Source: an uncultured Methylomirabilota bacterium
Lineage (GTDB): Bacteria; Methylomirabilota; Methylomirabilia; Methylomirabilales; 2-02-FULL-66-22
Direction: 5' to 3'
NCBI GenBank assembly: GCA_963845565.1
Contig: CAWJSJ010000002.1
Location: 2,400,001 to 2,464,000, forward strand
Length of the DNA: 64,000 nt
This document shows positions 12,147 through 23,957 of the stretch, piece by piece. Below the pieces are notes generated by a model that was given only the letters and a program-made list of their open reading frames with translations, was not told the DNA's origin and ran no database searches. The number at the start of each line of letters is the position of its first letter. Position 1 is the first letter of the stretch. The position numbers and the translations under genes are program-made.

Positions 12147-13394
12147 ATGACTGGGACCGCCATCGAGCAGGAAGCACAGCGCCAGCTGGCCATCCTCAAG
12201 GCCAGGTGCGTGGATCTGTTGGTCGAGGAGGAGCTGCACCGAAAGCTCTGCCGTTCGCTGGCGACCCGGACGCCGCTCCGGGTCAAGCTGGGTTTGGACC
12301 CGACCGCGCCCGACCTCCACATCGGCCACACCGTGGTCATCCACAAGCTGCGCGAGTTTCAACTGCTGGGCCATCAGGTCATCTTTCTCATCGGGGACTT
12401 CACCGGACGCATCGGCGATCCCACCGGCCGCTCCGAGACGCGCAAGGCGCTCACCGAGGCTCAGATCGCCCAGAATGCCGAGACCTACAAACGGCAGATC
12501 TTCAAGATCCTGGACCCGCACCAGACGGTGATCGACTACAACAGCCGGTGGGGCAAGACCCTCGGCTCGGAAGGGATCATCAAGCTGGCCGCCCAGTACA
12601 CCGTGGCCCGCATGCTGGAGCGGGACGATTTCCAGAAGCGCTTCGCCGAGGGCCGTCCCATCAGCATCCACGAGTTCCTGTACCCGCTGCTGCAGGGGTA
12701 CGACTCCGTGGCGCTCCAGGCCGACGTGGAGCTCGGCGGGACCGACCAGAAGTTCAATCTGCTGGTCGGCCGAGAGTTGCAGCGCGAAGCCGGCCAGGAG
12801 CCACAGGTCATCATGACGCTGCCGATCCTGGAAGGGCTCGACGGCGCGCAGAAGATGAGCAAGAGCCTGGGAAACTACATCGGGATCGACGAGCCCCCCC
12901 AGGCCATTTTCGGGAAGGCGATGTCCATCCCCGACGCGCTGATCGTGCGGTACATGGAGCTGGCGACCGCCATCGCGCGCGACGAGATCGCGGCGATGGC
13001 GAAGGGCCTGGCGAGCGAGGCGGCGAATCCGCGCGACGCCAAGGTGCGCCTTGCCAAGGCGCTGGTAACGCAGTACCATTCGGCCGAGGCCGCAGAGGAG
13101 GCGGCGCGCTGGTTCGCGCAGACCTTCAGCGCCCGGCAATTCCCCGATGACGCGGAGGTTGTGCGCGTGGACTCGGGAGCCCTCGAAGCCGACGGGCAGG
13201 TGGGAATTGCCCGCTTGATCGTCGTGTGCGGCAAGGGGGCAATCAGCAGCTCGGAAGCCGGCCGGCTGGTCGCGCAGGGCGGGGTGAAGGTCGACGGAGA
13301 AGCCATTTCCGATCGAGAGTCTCGCGTCTCTCTCGACCGCGAGCGGCGCTTGCAGGTCGGCAAGCGCCGTTTCTACAAGGTCTCGAGAGCGTGA
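12147..13394 (+). CDS. tyrS: Tyrosine--tRNA ligase
   Basis: GLDPTAPDLHIGH, KMSKS, C-terminal S4 domain. Confidence 0.97.
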   Translation: MTGTAIEQEAQRQLAILKARCVDLLVEEELHRKLCRSLATRTPLRVKLGLDPTAPDLHIGHTVVIHKLREFQLLGHQVIFLIGDFTGRIGDPTGRSETRKALTEAQIAQNAETYKRQIFKILDPHQTVIDYNSRWGKTLGSEGIIKLAAQYTVARMLERDDFQKRFAEGRPISIHEFLYPLLQGYDSVALQADVELGGTDQKFNLLVGRELQREAGQEPQVIMTLPILEGLDGAQKMSKSLGNYIGIDEPPQAIFGKAMSIPDALIVRYMELATAIARDEIAAMAKGLASEAANPRDAKVRLAKALVTQYHSAEAAEEAARWFAQTFSARQFPDDAEVVRVDSGALEADGQVGIARLIVVCGKGAISSSEAGRLVAQGGVKVDGEAISDRESRVSLDRERRLQVGKRRFYKVSRA

Positions 13395-13415
13395 CGGCTT
13401 CGCCGAAGGTTCTCG

Positions 13416-13464
13416 AAATTTCTTTTAAAAAGTAGTTGACAAGGTTCGTGCACACGAGTATAAA
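13416..13464 (+). promoter_or_regulatory. rRNA operon promoter with UP element
   Basis: AT-rich tract, TTGACA (13436)-17 bp-TATAAA (13459). Confidence 0.85.
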
Positions 13465-13566
13465 GAGAATCCCACGGCGGGAGGTTCCACGGCTGATGGG
13501 AACCGAAGATCCCGCGGGGACGTTCTAGAAGTGAAGCGGCGGGAGGTTTTTGAGCCCGCCCCTTTT

Positions 13567-13578
13567 TGTTCTCTGACA
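13567..13578 (+). promoter_or_regulatory. Leader boxA antitermination element
   Basis: TGTTCTCTGACA resembles TGCTCTTTAACA; preceded by a boxB-like hairpin. Confidence 0.6.
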
Positions 13579-13680
13579 ACAGAATATCATTGCTACGAGC
13601 TTGTGGGTGGACACATGAGTAATTACACCTCCGTCCGCCAGGACGGGGTGTCCGAGATCTCTCGTAAGAGAGACCGTATA

Positions 13681-15248
<1,568 letters not shown>

Positions 15249-15463
15249 AGCTTGGCCAGTCCCTCGAAAGTTGGACTGTACGGCTTCTGGTCGATTTACC
15301 CCAAGTTGGTAGCAATGATATCTAATACACGCGCGCATCTCTGGTGCGACACGGCGGGGCGGGGAACACTGCTGCCCCGTTGTCTGTCTGGAGACGAGGC
15401 CGAACCGTTGCGCGGCCCGAAGGTAGGCCAGCGGCTGCTGCGGTGGCGCTTCGTCGGTCGCGG

Positions 15464-15540
15464 GGGCCTTTAGCTCAGCTGGCTAGAGCGCACGCTTGAT
15501 AAGCGTGAGGTCCCTGGTTCGATCCCAGGAAGGCCCACCA
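15464..15540 (+). tRNA. tRNA-Ile(GAT)
   Basis: Cloverleaf, anticodon arm CACGC-TTGATAA-GCGTG, encoded CCA. Confidence 0.97.
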
Positions 15541-15544
15541 CAGG

Positions 15545-15612
15545 AATTGACGATTGACGATTGACGATTTTCGATTGTTCAATCGGCAATCAAAAATCGG
15601 CAATCGGAAATT
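15545..15612. repeat. Heptamer-repeat hairpin (GATTGAC)n...(GCAATC-type)n
   Basis: ATTGACG x3 ATTTTCG ATTG ... CAATCGG CAATCAA AAATCGG CAATCGG between tRNA-Ile and tRNA-Ala. Confidence 0.85.
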
Positions 15613-15618
15613 TACTGT

Positions 15619-15694
15619 GGGGATGTAGCTCAGTTGGGAGAGCACCTGCTTTGCAAGCAGGGGGTCAGCGGTTCGATTCCGCTCATCTCCACCA
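15619..15694 (+). tRNA. tRNA-Ala(TGC)
   Basis: Cloverleaf, CCTGC-TTTGCAA-GCAGG, encoded CCA. Confidence 0.97.
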
Positions 15695-15741
15695 TGAGAG
15701 TGTGCTGCGCGTAAGAGTGTCCCCAGGAACATGTGGGGATT

Positions 15742-15753
15742 TGCTCTTTGACA
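15742..15753 (+). promoter_or_regulatory. Spacer boxA
   Basis: TGCTCTTTGACA upstream of 23S. Confidence 0.8.
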
Positions 15754-15800
15754 ACTGAATAGCGATCGGGTGTCTATATTGTTTCTCCGAGCAGAAGTGG

Positions 15801-18825
<3,025 letters not shown>

Positions 18826-18861
18826 CATTTTTCTTCTTTCATTCGATACTTTCGGGAAGCA

Positions 18862-19218
18862 ATGAGACACCCGATTCGCTATTCGTCTTTGCCAATGCGA
18901 TGCGTCGCTTTTGTGCTTGGCTTAAGCGGTACGCTGGTGCTTGGAGCGGACGATGTGTTGCCGGCGAACCAGGGAAAGCCCGAGGTGGCTACCCAGGTTC
19001 AAAAGGCGCCGGTAAAGTCGGCGGGAAAAGCCGATGTGAATACGGCGAGTGTCGACGAGCTCTCGCGACTGCCGGGGATGAACGTTCAGACCGCCGAAAA
19101 GATCATCGGAAATCGTCCGTACCGAAAGCTGGACGAACTGATCACCAAGAAGGTGCTGGGCAAGAAAGAGTTTGCGCAGGTTCGGGAGTATATCGTGATC
19201 AGGTCCGGCAAGAAGTGA
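18862..19218 (+). CDS. ComEA-like helix-hairpin-helix DNA-binding protein with signal peptide, in the 23S-5S spacer
   Basis: Hydrophobic N-terminus (CVAFVLGLSGTLVLGA), linker, then DVNTASVDELSRLPGM...AEKIIGNRPYRKLDEL...FAQVREYI (HHH_3 pattern); alternative start ATG 18895. Confidence 0.85.
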   Translation: MRHPIRYSSLPMRCVAFVLGLSGTLVLGADDVLPANQGKPEVATQVQKAPVKSAGKADVNTASVDELSRLPGMNVQTAEKIIGNRPYRKLDELITKKVLGKKEFAQVREYIVIRSGKK

Positions 19219-19247
19219 TGTGTCGCGGTTGGCTCGAGTCCTGAAGT

Positions 19248-19365
<118 letters not shown>

Positions 19366-19372
19366 TTTTTTC

Positions 19373-19416
19373 AAAGGGCCTCATGCGTTTTAAGCATGAG
19401 GCCCTTTGTTTTTCTT
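19373..19416 (+). terminator. rRNA operon terminator
   Basis: 14-bp stem AAAGGGCCTCATGC/GCATGAGGCCCTTT followed by a T-rich tail. Confidence 0.9.
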
Positions 19417-19557
19417 ACGGCAGCGGTCTTGCGCGGCACCGGATGGCATTTCTGCCGGATTCTGGCGTGTCCTCGCCAACGCCCTGGCGGGAGATGTCAA
19501 TTGACAGGGATGCAAGCGGTGTGTTAAATACTTGGATCAAAATGGCCGGAAAGACGG

Positions 19558-21027
19558 ATGAAAATCGCCTTCTCTGATACCAGGCAATCGTGGACCTCCC
19601 GGCTTCTCGTCGCGGTTGCGATCGTGACGGGCGCGGTGCTGTGTCTCGCGCCAACGGTTACTGCCGGGCAACCGGACAACTCGCAAAGACCTCCATCCGG
19701 TTCCTCAACACCGCCCCGCGAAACTGTCGCGCCGGTTTCAACCACGGCCGGAATCTCCAAGATCCGAATCGGGAAACACCCGGACTTCACCCGCGTCGTG
19801 CTGGAACTGACCGGGTCATATGAATGGACGATCGAGCAGCCCCCCGGCGGTCCGGTGCGGATCCTGATTCCTGGGGCCGGCGTGGATGCGAGCATCCGTC
19901 GTCTCGAGTTTTCCAGCGGAGTGATCCGGTCGGTACAGACGACGCGACGCGCCAACGGCATTGAAGTGATCTTGGTTTGCCAACCCGCCGGGGTGAAGCT
20001 ACGTACACAGACCCTGACGGAACCGGAACGGTTGGTGGTGGACGTGTCCCTTCCGGCTGCCGGGGAGGAGGGGCGGACGCTGGCACTGGCCGGCGTACCC
20101 CCACCAGGAAACCCGGCCAAGGCCGCCGCTCCGGCGCCGGCGCCGCGCACCGGGTTGGAGAAATCCCCCGCTTCAGAGGCTCCCACTCCTGAACCGGCGG
20201 ATCGGGCGGCGCGTATCCCCGCACCCCTGGGAAGCGCGGGGAAGGAGGCGGCCGGGGGGAGCGGGACGGGTGCAACGGCATTGCCGGACCGGGACGGTAC
20301 CAGAAAACCGTTGACGATCGTCCTCGACCCCGGCCACGGCGGACACGACACGGGCGCCATTGGGCCGACCGGCTTGATGGAGAAGGACGTGGTGCTGGAC
20401 CTGGGGTTCCGACTCCGGCGCCTGTTGCAGGACCGGCTCGGCGTCCGGGTGTTGATGACCCGGACCGAGGACGAGTTCGTGTCGCTCGCCGACCGGAGCG
20501 CCTTTGCCAATCGCGCCAAAGCGGACTTTCTGATCAGTCTGCACGTGAACGCGGCCAGCAAACGGGGAGCCGTCGGGTTCGAGACGTTCTTCTTCGCGCG
20601 TGAGCCGTCCGATAACGACGCGCGCGCCTCGGCGCAGCGGGAGAACCTGGTGGTCGAGGGCAACGGGGCGGGTGGGAACGACTTGGAGGCCTTGCTCAAG
20701 ACCACGCTCGCCGACATGGCGGTGACTCGCGATATCAAAGAATCGAGCAATCTGGCGGAACGCCTCCTGGCGTCCCTGGAGAAGATCCTGCGGGTCGACA
20801 ATCGCGGGGTCAAGTCCGGTCCGTTCTACGTCCTTGCCACAGCGGCCATGCCCGCCGTCTTGGTGGAGAGCGCGTTCATCACGAATCCCAAAGAGGAGCG
20901 AAAGCTCCAACGCGAGGAACACCGGCAGCGGATCGCCGACGCGCTGTATGAGGGGATTGCTGCGTACAAGGTCCGCTACGAGCAGCGACTGGGCTTGCGG
21001 ACCGTCCCGGCCGGCGTCGGGTCCTGA
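19558..21027 (+). CDS. N-acetylmuramoyl-L-alanine amidase (AMIN + Amidase_3)
   Basis: Signal peptide, AMIN-like RVVLEL/RLVVDV, IVLDPGHGG, EK, SLHVNA, PAVLVE. Confidence 0.92.
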   Translation: MKIAFSDTRQSWTSRLLVAVAIVTGAVLCLAPTVTAGQPDNSQRPPSGSSTPPRETVAPVSTTAGISKIRIGKHPDFTRVVLELTGSYEWTIEQPPGGPVRILIPGAGVDASIRRLEFSSGVIRSVQTTRRANGIEVILVCQPAGVKLRTQTLTEPERLVVDVSLPAAGEEGRTLALAGVPPPGNPAKAAAPAPAPRTGLEKSPASEAPTPEPADRAARIPAPLGSAGKEAAGGSGTGATALPDRDGTRKPLTIVLDPGHGGHDTGAIGPTGLMEKDVVLDLGFRLRRLLQDRLGVRVLMTRTEDEFVSLADRSAFANRAKADFLISLHVNAASKRGAVGFETFFFAREPSDNDARASAQRENLVVEGNGAGGNDLEALLKTTLADMAVTRDIKESSNLAERLLASLEKILRVDNRGVKSGPFYVLATAAMPAVLVESAFITNPKEERKLQREEHRQRIADALYEGIAAYKVRYEQRLGLRTVPAGVGS

Positions 21028-23063: not shown

Positions 23064-23679
23064 CACGCTCGTCATTGCGACCGGCAATCGCGGGAAATTC
23101 AAAGAGTTTGCCGAGTTGCTGCAAGGCCTGAATGCCGACATCGTGCCGCTCGACCGGGTTGGGCCTGTCGAGGTTCCTCCGGAGAGCGGCGACTCGTTTC
23201 AGGAGAACGCGCGGCTGAAAGCGGTGGCCGTCGCCACCGCGCTCGGAGCTGGGTTCTGGCTGATGATTCCGGTCTCGAGGTGGATGCGCTGGGGGGTGCC
23301 CCGGGTGTCCTTTCGGCCCGGTTCGGCGGCCCAGGTAAGACCGACGCCGAACGGTGCGACCTGCTCTTGGACAAACTCATAGGGATTGCTTCCGAGCGGC
23401 GAACGGCACGCTTTCGCTGTGTGGTTGCCCTCGCCGAGCCGGGCGGACGGGTGCACTGTCGCCGAGGGAGCTTGTGAGGGGCGTATCGCGTCGGCGCCGC
23501 GGGGCTCCCACGGGTTCGGGTACGATCCCGTGTTCGAGATCCCGGCGCTCGGCAAGACGCTGGCCGAGGTTGGGCCAGAGATCAAGAACCGCCTGAGCCA
23601 CCGGTCCCAGGCTGTCGCCAAGATGCGCGCGATCCTTCAGACTCTTCTGCCGACAGGTGACCGACGGCGGGAGGGGTGA
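23035..23679 (+). CDS. rdgB: RdgB/HAM1 dITP/XTP pyrophosphatase, two frameshifts (probable indel errors); start uncertain
   Basis: [54 protein letters not shown] spread over three frames. Confidence 0.85.
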
Positions 23680-23707: not shown

Positions 23708-23784
<77 letters not shown>

Positions 23785-23879: not shown

Positions 23880-23957
23880 GCGCCCGTAGCTCAGCCCGGA
23901 TAGAGCAACGGCCTCCGGAGCCGTGTGTCGGGTGTTCAAATCACCCCGGGCGCGCCA
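23880..23957 (+). tRNA. tRNA-Arg(CCG)
   Basis: ACGGC-CTCCGGA-GCCGT, CCA. Confidence 0.95.

Follow-up and report, generated by a model that had tools for sequence, protein, structure and literature searches.

In an uncultured Methylomirabilota bacterium, a protein-coding gene with an HHH_3-type helix-hairpin-helix (HhH) domain was confirmed inside the rRNA operon, in the spacer between the 23S and 5S rRNA genes. The gene lies in a 64,000-nucleotide (nt) stretch of forward-strand DNA (GenBank assembly GCA_963845565.1, contig CAWJSJ010000002.1, positions 2,400,001–2,464,000), hereafter the window, whose own numbering is used throughout. The open reading frame (ORF) is a real gene under purifying selection and not a chance ORF, and in many Methylomirabilota it has been passed down within their one rRNA operon. 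With a probability of roughly 0.7, we propose that it is transcribed solely in the pre-rRNA by a boxA-modified RNA polymerase, released by RNase III as a 9S-like RNA, and translated from the ATG at 18895 into an exported or membrane-anchored protein that binds DNA non-specifically.

The window contains a complete rRNA operon on the plus strand, encoding 16S, two tRNAs, 23S and 5S. With the 23S rRNA gene at 15801–18826 (Rfam RF02541, 2947.2 bits) and the 5S rRNA gene at 19249–19365 (RF00001, 103.4 bits), the spacer spans 18827–19248 (422 nt), and it holds an ORF of 118 aa at 18862–19218 (+). An initial annotation, made from the letters of the window alone, had described just such an intact same-strand ORF in a spacer of about 420 bp, and the Rfam boundaries and the ORF list bear it out. 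The stop codon is separated from 5S by 30 nt, a distance of 13–70 nt in relatives and 7 nt in family f8 (f1, f2, f4, f5, f7, f8, f9 and g1 are family or genus labels of the genome collection, and the groupings rest on a 23S tree). Thirteen closer homologs with 59–95% identity originate from independent metagenome sources. Of 41 related genomes searched, 20 gave a match, and same-slot orthologs, 34–47% identical to the window protein, were found in 24 genomes of four families (f1, f2, f7 and f8), including the single-contig genomes G014 and G043. The 5S rRNA gene is directly downstream on the same strand at all 15 best loci and the 23S end upstream at 14 of them; at the fifteenth, where no 23S is visible, the contig begins inside the ORF. 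When a profile of the 15 orthologs was searched against 201 genomes of the phylum, a high-scoring set (116–148 bits) stood apart from all other matches (at most 88 bits). All seven further high scorers, each from f7, adjoin 5S, with 23S visible in six, and no rRNA gene was found near any of ten loci from f9.

An alignment of the orthologs shows a variable hydrophobic N-terminus and a variable linker, followed by a conserved domain of approximately 60 residues. Selection was analyzed over 57 codons of this domain in 15 sequences (105 pairs). The median proportion of synonymous differences (pS) was 0.77, with synonymous sites near saturation, and that of nonsynonymous differences (pN) was 0.29; among the 25 pairs with a synonymous distance (dS) below 2, the median ratio of nonsynonymous to synonymous change (dN/dS) was 0.20. 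The dN/dS comparison suggested with the initial annotation thus yields a value of about 0.2 in the domain, indicating purifying selection. Mean pairwise differences at the first, second and third codon positions were 0.34, 0.22 and 0.63 in the domain, compared to 0.60, 0.57 and 0.63 in the N-terminal part. The reading frame is open in 23 of the 24 gene-bearing genomes, the exception being G009. The locus concerned, L010 (G009:C23:1-482), was excluded from the selection analysis; it encodes the closest relative of the window protein in the genome collection (79% identity over the C-terminal part), with the match split over two frames near nt 160–172, at the contig start, by a frameshift or an assembly error.

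An assembled 5S was available in 37 of the 66 genomes of the order. The spacer ORF was present in ten g1 genomes (the copy in G009 being broken or incomplete), in the single f2 genome and in all 12 informative f7 genomes, and in one f8 genome, which is of a different order, the spacer measures 380 nt and holds an HHH_3 ORF of 114 aa. It was absent, with short spacers, in f4 (5/5, 56–64 nt), f5 (3/3, 55–56 nt) and f9 (4/4, 70–109 nt). This census leaves out G015 and G094, whose contigs end at this point, as well as G096 and G168, and the unpublished genomes G080 and G168 support none of the claims made here. Conservation of the ORF in spacers of NC10 and Rokubacteria, raised in the initial annotation, therefore extends to relatives in which the frame is open but not to four Rokubacteria-like (f9) genomes, whose short spacers are empty.

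Two members of g1 have lost the gene. G012 (L079, G012:C31) has a 76-nt spacer that retains the strand of the 23S processing helix (described below) alone, and G013 (L078, G013:C290) has a 160-nt remnant with the helix strand, the sequence ATG CGA CGC AGC TAG and a piece encoding KQFARIRD, which is an internal deletion. Together these spacers display stepwise deletion of the gene in two close relatives; G013 additionally has a second CGCTATTC copy immediately 5′ of 5S. Over the final 300 nt of 23S, these two genomes are nearest to the window (94% identity, versus 87–88% for three other ORF-bearing g1 genomes), and in the 23S tree they form a clade (support 100/99) nested in g1 (100/100) and sister to the window plus G004. 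As they are nested in g1 and the ORF is deleted, the gene was lost recently and is dispensable, with the helix strand retained.

The 23S tree separates f9 from the rest at 100/100 and leaves the deeper branching among g1, f7, f4, f5 and f8+f2 without resolution. One gain with losses and several gains are therefore indistinguishable, and a single gain was not retained as a result of this tree, since its backbone gives no decision. In the protein tree, the non-rRNA copies (those of f9 and the second paralog of the window genome) form one clade (100/100) with the spacer genes on the opposite side, so a single origin of the spacer genes is possible, not proven; the canonical ComEA row of that tree is a long branch landing inside f7. 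Flanking direct repeats, considered as a trace of the insertion mechanism, were seen in none of the last 75 nt of 17 spacers. Two loci outside both trees, L031 and L034, carry the rRNA operon under the labels 'Candidatus Baltobacteraceae' and 'Patescibacteria group'; both agree with Methylomirabilales loci in the rRNA genes around the ORF and in its profile score, and the labels probably reflect mis-binning or mislabelling. The 3′ half of the f5 23S (L065 in G024, L085 in G209) fits Rfam model positions 1243–2925 within only 1445 nt at a reduced 1009 bits. Together with the long f5 branch in the 23S tree (0.43), this points to deletions in, or an unusual form of, the 23S of this family.

The first part of the spacer belongs to rRNA processing. 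Cofolding of the 65 nt 5′ of 23S with the first 100 nt 3′ of it produced an extended intermolecular helix in 10/10 organisms; for the window its energy is −63.5 kcal/mol. In the window the helix core pairs 15757–15789 (5′ strand) with 18853–18884 (3′ strand), both on the plus strand. An alignment of six g1 sequences contains compensatory double changes at four helix pairs, with most others invariant, and this flank-to-flank helix is the 23S processing helix. Such a helix is the usual substrate of RNase III, the gene for which is present in the genome (58.4 bits; G000:C2, ~2,572,4xx). The 3′ strand takes up the first 59 nt past 23S, so that 10 nt remain before the ATG at 18895. Met-Arg-Arg encoded from this ATG is the start common to relatives, defining a gene at 18895–19218 (+, stop codon included) for a protein of 107 aa. 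The upstream ATG at 18862, proposed by the initial annotation and also by several gene callers (118 aa), had to be abandoned: it lies inside the helix strand, at spacer positions 36–38 pairing with 5′ positions 44–42, with 36 and 37 belonging to covarying pairs, and in the rest of g1 the ATG is replaced by GGG, GAA or GAG. In the Methylomirabilis-like family f7, AGGA and the ATG are situated in internal loops of the helix, and codons 2–5 pair with the 5′ flank.

The remaining operon elements are arranged as in a putative single transcription unit. A probable promoter (TTGACA-17 nt-TATAAA with an A/T-rich stretch upstream; a consensus match only) is found at 13436–13464, followed by the genes for 16S rRNA (13681–15242; RF00177, 1611.5 bits), tRNA-Ile (GAT, 15464–15540) and tRNA-Ala (TGC, 15619–15694), the tRNAs being identified by both ARAGORN and Rfam. 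A boxA-like element, GCTCTTTGACAA, is located at 15743–15754, just 5′ of the 23S helix, with two matches in the window against 0.09 expected; it is kept in the 5′ flanks of 10/10 organisms retrieved, and it resembles the E. coli boxA consensus. A fuzzy match to it with two mismatches, TGTTCTCTGACAA, lies in the leader at 13567–13579 and may have the same function; next to it comes CAGAATATC, similar to the beginning of the 23S helix strand. An intrinsic terminator with a 15-bp stem and a T run follows 5S (19372–19415), and a strong hairpin with a T-rich run occurs 3′ of 5S in all 15 operons folded. All of these features are on the plus strand. A further boxA-like match, GCTCTTGGACAA, with one mismatch, was noted at 23363–23374 (+), about 340 nt 5′ of two tRNA genes (23708–23781 and 23880–23954).

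A consensus scan of positions 13000–20000 detected nothing terminator-like from the 3′ end of 23S to 5S; the only plus-strand site at or after the 23S 3′ end is that behind 5S (entry 19372–19408), and a second match (15719–15740) sits in the 16S–23S spacer. In the same scan, which was limited to sigma-70-type matches of at least 9 of 12 positions, no plus-strand promoter-like match was listed past 13051; the promoter at 13436 was missed because its −10 hexamer ends in A. These results, together with the boxA-like element 5′ of 23S, agree with the initial annotation in three respects, namely that no terminator separates 23S from the ORF and a strong one follows 5S, that no promoter or terminator of its own isolates the ORF, and that the operon is antiterminated. 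One 5S gene, and therefore a single rRNA operon, occurs in the window genome (G000; 5.36 Mb in 6 contigs, 98.7% complete).

RNA evidence was sought in four sequencing runs, examined as assembled contigs, which show neither ends nor strand; uncovered bins were not counted as evidence. The best run holds at most 0.30 of the sampled words, mostly from rRNA parts. A 379-nt contig of metatranscriptome X1 (record 3, 17 differences) covers 18732–19056 and thus bridges the 23S/ORF junction, with 95 nt of 23S and 230 nt beyond. Contigs over 18919–19238 with 2–16 differences are present in X1, X2 and X3 (RNA libraries from two studies), and X16, for which the kind of library is not given, covers 18669–19254. 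The depth of the ORF was 1–50, compared to 10^3–10^6 for mature 23S, which fits a processed by-product of the precursor. Joints skipping 412–487 nt from the 23S end to 5S were also seen in the runs; no conclusion was drawn from them, as they most plausibly stem from other organisms whose spacers are short.

From this layout we infer co-transcription, a processing route with its cleavage sites, a mode of translation, export and DNA as the ligand, in the following order. RNA polymerase would start at the rRNA promoter and be modified at the boxA elements, producing one RNA that would include 16S, tRNA-Ile, tRNA-Ala, 23S, the ORF and 5S and end at the terminator past 5S; read-through into the ORF is expected because no terminator intervenes. 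RNase III would cut the long helix of the two 23S flanks, and what remains, from the 3′ helix strand through the ORF to 5S, would be a 9S-like precursor doubling as messenger; cleavage beside 5S would then part the message from 5S. Translation would begin at ATG 18895, 10 nt past the helix and behind a pyrimidine-rich leader; in f7 the start codon and codons 2–5 would be inside the helix. Export or anchoring of the protein would put its domain outside the cytoplasm, where it would most likely bind double-stranded DNA non-specifically. A more specific form of this proposal is somewhat doubtful and put forward tentatively: the messenger would have no promoter of its own and be a by-product of ribosome synthesis, the RNase III cut would make its 5′ end and unmask the start, the folded 5S would protect its 3′ end until trimmed, and the 9S-like precursor would be the mRNA, one message per ribosome. 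If true, this stoichiometry would couple DNA binding at the envelope rigidly to growth rate.

The encoded protein was assigned to Pfam HHH_3 (PF12836) with an E-value of 5.3e-14 and 52.5 bits (cut-off 27; residues 54–111 of the 118-aa form), and the cut-off was also passed by orthologs from f7 (58.7 bits) and f8 (39.6 bits). AlphaFold2 and Foldseek place an (HhH)2 domain at residues 47–102 of the 107-aa protein (19033–19200, +), with a predicted local distance difference test score above 90 over approximately residues 50–105 and no structure before them. The best Foldseek match was the ComEA-related Thermus protein 2duy (TM-score 0.83 normalised to the target, root-mean-square deviation (rmsd) 1.7 Å), followed by Tex, Geobacillus ComEA 8dss (rmsd 1.5 Å, 66 columns) and PsbU; all Foldseek E-values exceeded 1e-3, as expected for a 60-residue domain. 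A profile search of the PDB returned EEPD1 (1.4e-11), 2duy (1.9e-10), ComEA 8dss (9.6e-9) and PsbU (2e-8). The HhH domain read from the window in the initial annotation was accordingly recovered by profile search, and its observation of PGMN in the first loop also holds: the first hairpin is LPGMN in the window and PGI[S/T/G] or PGM[T/A/S/G] in relatives. All 15 orthologs begin with 1–3 basic residues and an uncharged hydrophobic run of 15–29 residues, a segment predicted to be either a Sec signal or a membrane anchor that would place the domain outside the cytoplasm; of the signal peptide proposed earlier, a predicted export or anchor segment stands, with a cleavable signal and an anchor equally accommodated. 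The net charge of the domain is +6 in the window and +5 to +11 across the 15 orthologs, which argues for nucleic-acid binding, with DNA as the predicted ligand.

The window genome encodes a canonical ComEA elsewhere (G000:C1, ~512.2–512.7 kb), a 183-aa ORF with LPGIG and VPGIG hairpins and an HHH_3 match of 74 bits (G000:C1:512506-512688), located upstream of a scpA-like ORF (named by eye). The spacer protein shares 29% identity over 58 residues with it and is a diverged ComEA paralog, not the organism's canonical ComEA. ComEC was present in all five genomes tested, including two without the spacer gene. The initial description of the product as ComEA-like thus holds for the HHH_3 domain and the (HhH)2 fold; it fails at the NCBIfam ComEA cut-offs, and the canonical ComEA lies outside the operon. 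Overall, the interpretation given in the initial annotation is partly supported.

A second HhH paralog of the window genome, of the short RPY form (L002:1393-1794; G000:C6, ~6.35–6.75 kb; 133 aa), is 42% identical to the spacer protein and has a His/Met-rich stretch, HSMPMHGQH. It directly follows a TolC-like outer-membrane efflux gene (Pfam OEP); the ORF after it encodes a secreted protein rich in Met, Gly and Ser, and a SAM riboswitch lies beyond, a context that hints at metals. No consistent neighbourhood of the non-rRNA sister paralogs was found by Pfam among 33 ORFs at 11 loci (OEP, CitMHS/TrkA_C, an ABC substrate-binding protein and an HtrA-like protease were among the neighbours), and neighbourhood was set aside as a functional clue. 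A candidate ComEC/ComEA fusion, the 960-aa frame L003 with an HhH match, was likewise dismissed, as on inspection by eye its translation resembles a Tex-type protein, and Tex was also returned by the PDB search. The first gene past the operon terminator (19558–21027, +) codes for a periplasmic cell-wall hydrolase, an N-acetylmuramoyl-L-alanine amidase (Pfam Amidase_3, 177.5 bits) that also has an AMIN domain.

Several observations weigh against a pre-rRNA-borne gene for an envelope DNA binder. Regarding the protein, the NCBIfam ComEA models were missed by a wide margin (TIGR01259 comE, 26.2 versus 152.35 bits; TIGR00426, 17.8 versus 53.1), and the second hairpin reads V-L-G-K-K, with GIG missing in 15/15 orthologs. 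The Pfam PsbU model (PF06514) scored 26.9 bits, above its gathering cut-off of 24.5 (38.8 for the f7 ortholog), so a role other than DNA binding is possible. Regarding expression, there is no Shine-Dalgarno-like purine run in the pyrimidine-rich leader before ATG 18895, and the distal helix segment over the f7 start codon displays conservation only, with no double change; L021, one of four sequences compared, breaks three of its eight pairs. No read or contig bridges the ORF–5S junction at a 31-nt criterion, so that of the two junctions named in the initial annotation only the 23S/ORF one is spanned, by one RNA-library contig, and RNA-library contigs can include DNA. Finally, the gene is dispensable, and because rRNA contigs are often mis-binned, the 23S tree is a safer guide than the family labels given to short contigs.

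The losses in G012 and G013, the absence from f4, f5 and f9 and the split match in G009 might together be taken to mean that the ORF is a passenger, either neutral or in decay, or that it arose as an artefact when rRNA repeats were assembled. We regard this as very improbable, since selection and synteny already contradict it: 23/24 carriers have an open frame, dN/dS is about 0.2 with third-position variation dominant, and the gene is present in the single-contig genomes G014 and G043. With a single operon in the genome, no repeat collapse is possible; the 13 near relatives at 59–95% identity in independent metagenome sources speak against an artefact as well, and copies of one contaminant contig are excluded by the 34–47% identity of the orthologs to the window protein. 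It is also improbable, though less so, that a separate promoter within the 3′ end of 23S or the helix strand drives the gene, making its expression independent of rRNA synthesis and its position a historical accident. A weak or alternative-sigma promoter could escape a scan that was confined to sigma-70-type matches and missed the one at 13436, and the bridging RNA contig, which begins matching at 18732, is compatible with a start inside 23S. Against this, the last 100 nt of 23S and the next 59 nt are constrained as rRNA and processing helix, the ATG follows the helix by only 10 nt, no plus-strand promoter-like site was found past 13051, and antiterminated read-through would occur anyway.

The rival that we consider unlikely rather than improbable concerns the protein and is compatible with co-transcription: the product would be no DNA-binding or uptake factor, acting instead as a PsbU-like periplasmic HhH subunit, structural or ligand-binding, of an envelope complex. 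PsbU is the 12-kDa extrinsic subunit of photosystem II, and the spacer protein resembles it in passing the Pfam cut-off in both the window and f7, in its HhH-like fold, with PsbU chains among the fold matches, and in being small and predicted to be exported; the second hairpin without GIG, the separate existence of canonical ComEA and ComEC, and the sister paralog with its His/Met-rich stretch beside a TolC-like outer-membrane protein point the same way. A search for the photosystem II reaction-centre gene (PF00124) gave no match in the 98.7% complete genome, and a control search finds Synechococcus. The PsbU match therefore reflects shared HHH_3 fold ancestry, not membership. Moreover, in sequence and fold the domain best matches ComEA-related proteins (2duy, 8dss) and the Tex HhH, it carries a strong positive charge in 15/15 orthologs, and the neighbours of the sister family differ across 11 loci. 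A DNA-binding product of the pre-rRNA remains our preferred reading.

The phylum is biogeochemically important, comprising nitrite-dependent methane oxidisers and their relatives, and the long 23S–5S spacer is a marker of these lineages. Annotation pipelines, rRNA depletion or masking may hide a gene in this position. The operon also provides a natural system for studying how an mRNA made by antiterminated rRNA polymerase, uncoupled from ribosomes, is translated, whether rRNA processing licenses translation, and what is gained by tying an envelope DNA-binding protein to ribosome output.

Compared to ComEA/ComE, the periplasmic receptors for DNA in natural transformation, the spacer protein is similarly small, with a predicted N-terminal export or anchor segment and a C-terminal basic (HhH)2 domain of the HHH_3 family, and in the PDB search alignment it shares with 2duy the short RPY form without a 4-residue insert. 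Canonical ComEA has two hairpins of the G-hydrophobic-G type, whereas the second hairpin here carries V-L-G-K-K in place of G-I-G and the NCBIfam ComEA cut-offs are not reached; the spacer protein is moreover encoded inside the rRNA operon, with canonical ComEA separate in the genome. The initial annotation pointed out that Neisseria comE copies lie beside rRNA operons. The 9S RNA of E. coli is a 5S precursor released from the rrn transcript by RNase III and trimmed by RNase E. The precursor predicted here would likewise extend from the RNase III cut in the 23S stem to the terminator with 5S at its 3′ end; it differs in its length of ~0.55 kb and its 107-codon ORF, and we know of nothing comparable to a translated ORF in 9S RNA.

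In the full-text literature, supplements aside, no published ComEA-like gene in a 23S–5S spacer and no such feature in Methylomirabilis was found. rRNA operons are taken as non-coding apart from tRNAs, and in the excerpted text of Lui et al. 2021 spacer protein genes are noted only in passing for the candidate phyla radiation (CPR) (PMC8172020). That text describes protein genes, often for homing endonucleases, between 16S and 23S or between 23S and 5S in circularised CPR genomes, and states that its authors know of no other report of such genes (PMC8172020). As far as the excerpt goes, the CPR/Patescibacteria cases share with ours a same-strand protein gene between 23S and 5S that is counted within the operon (PMC8172020). 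They differ in concerning ultra-small CPR genomes and homing endonucleases (PMC8172020), as opposed to a free-living lineage with genomes of 2.5–7 Mb and a spacer gene of a known DNA-binding family, orthologous across four families and with traceable losses. What is new here is thus an identifiable envelope HhH family kept in the 23S–5S slot across four families of a non-CPR phylum, with its start codon at or within the processing helix.

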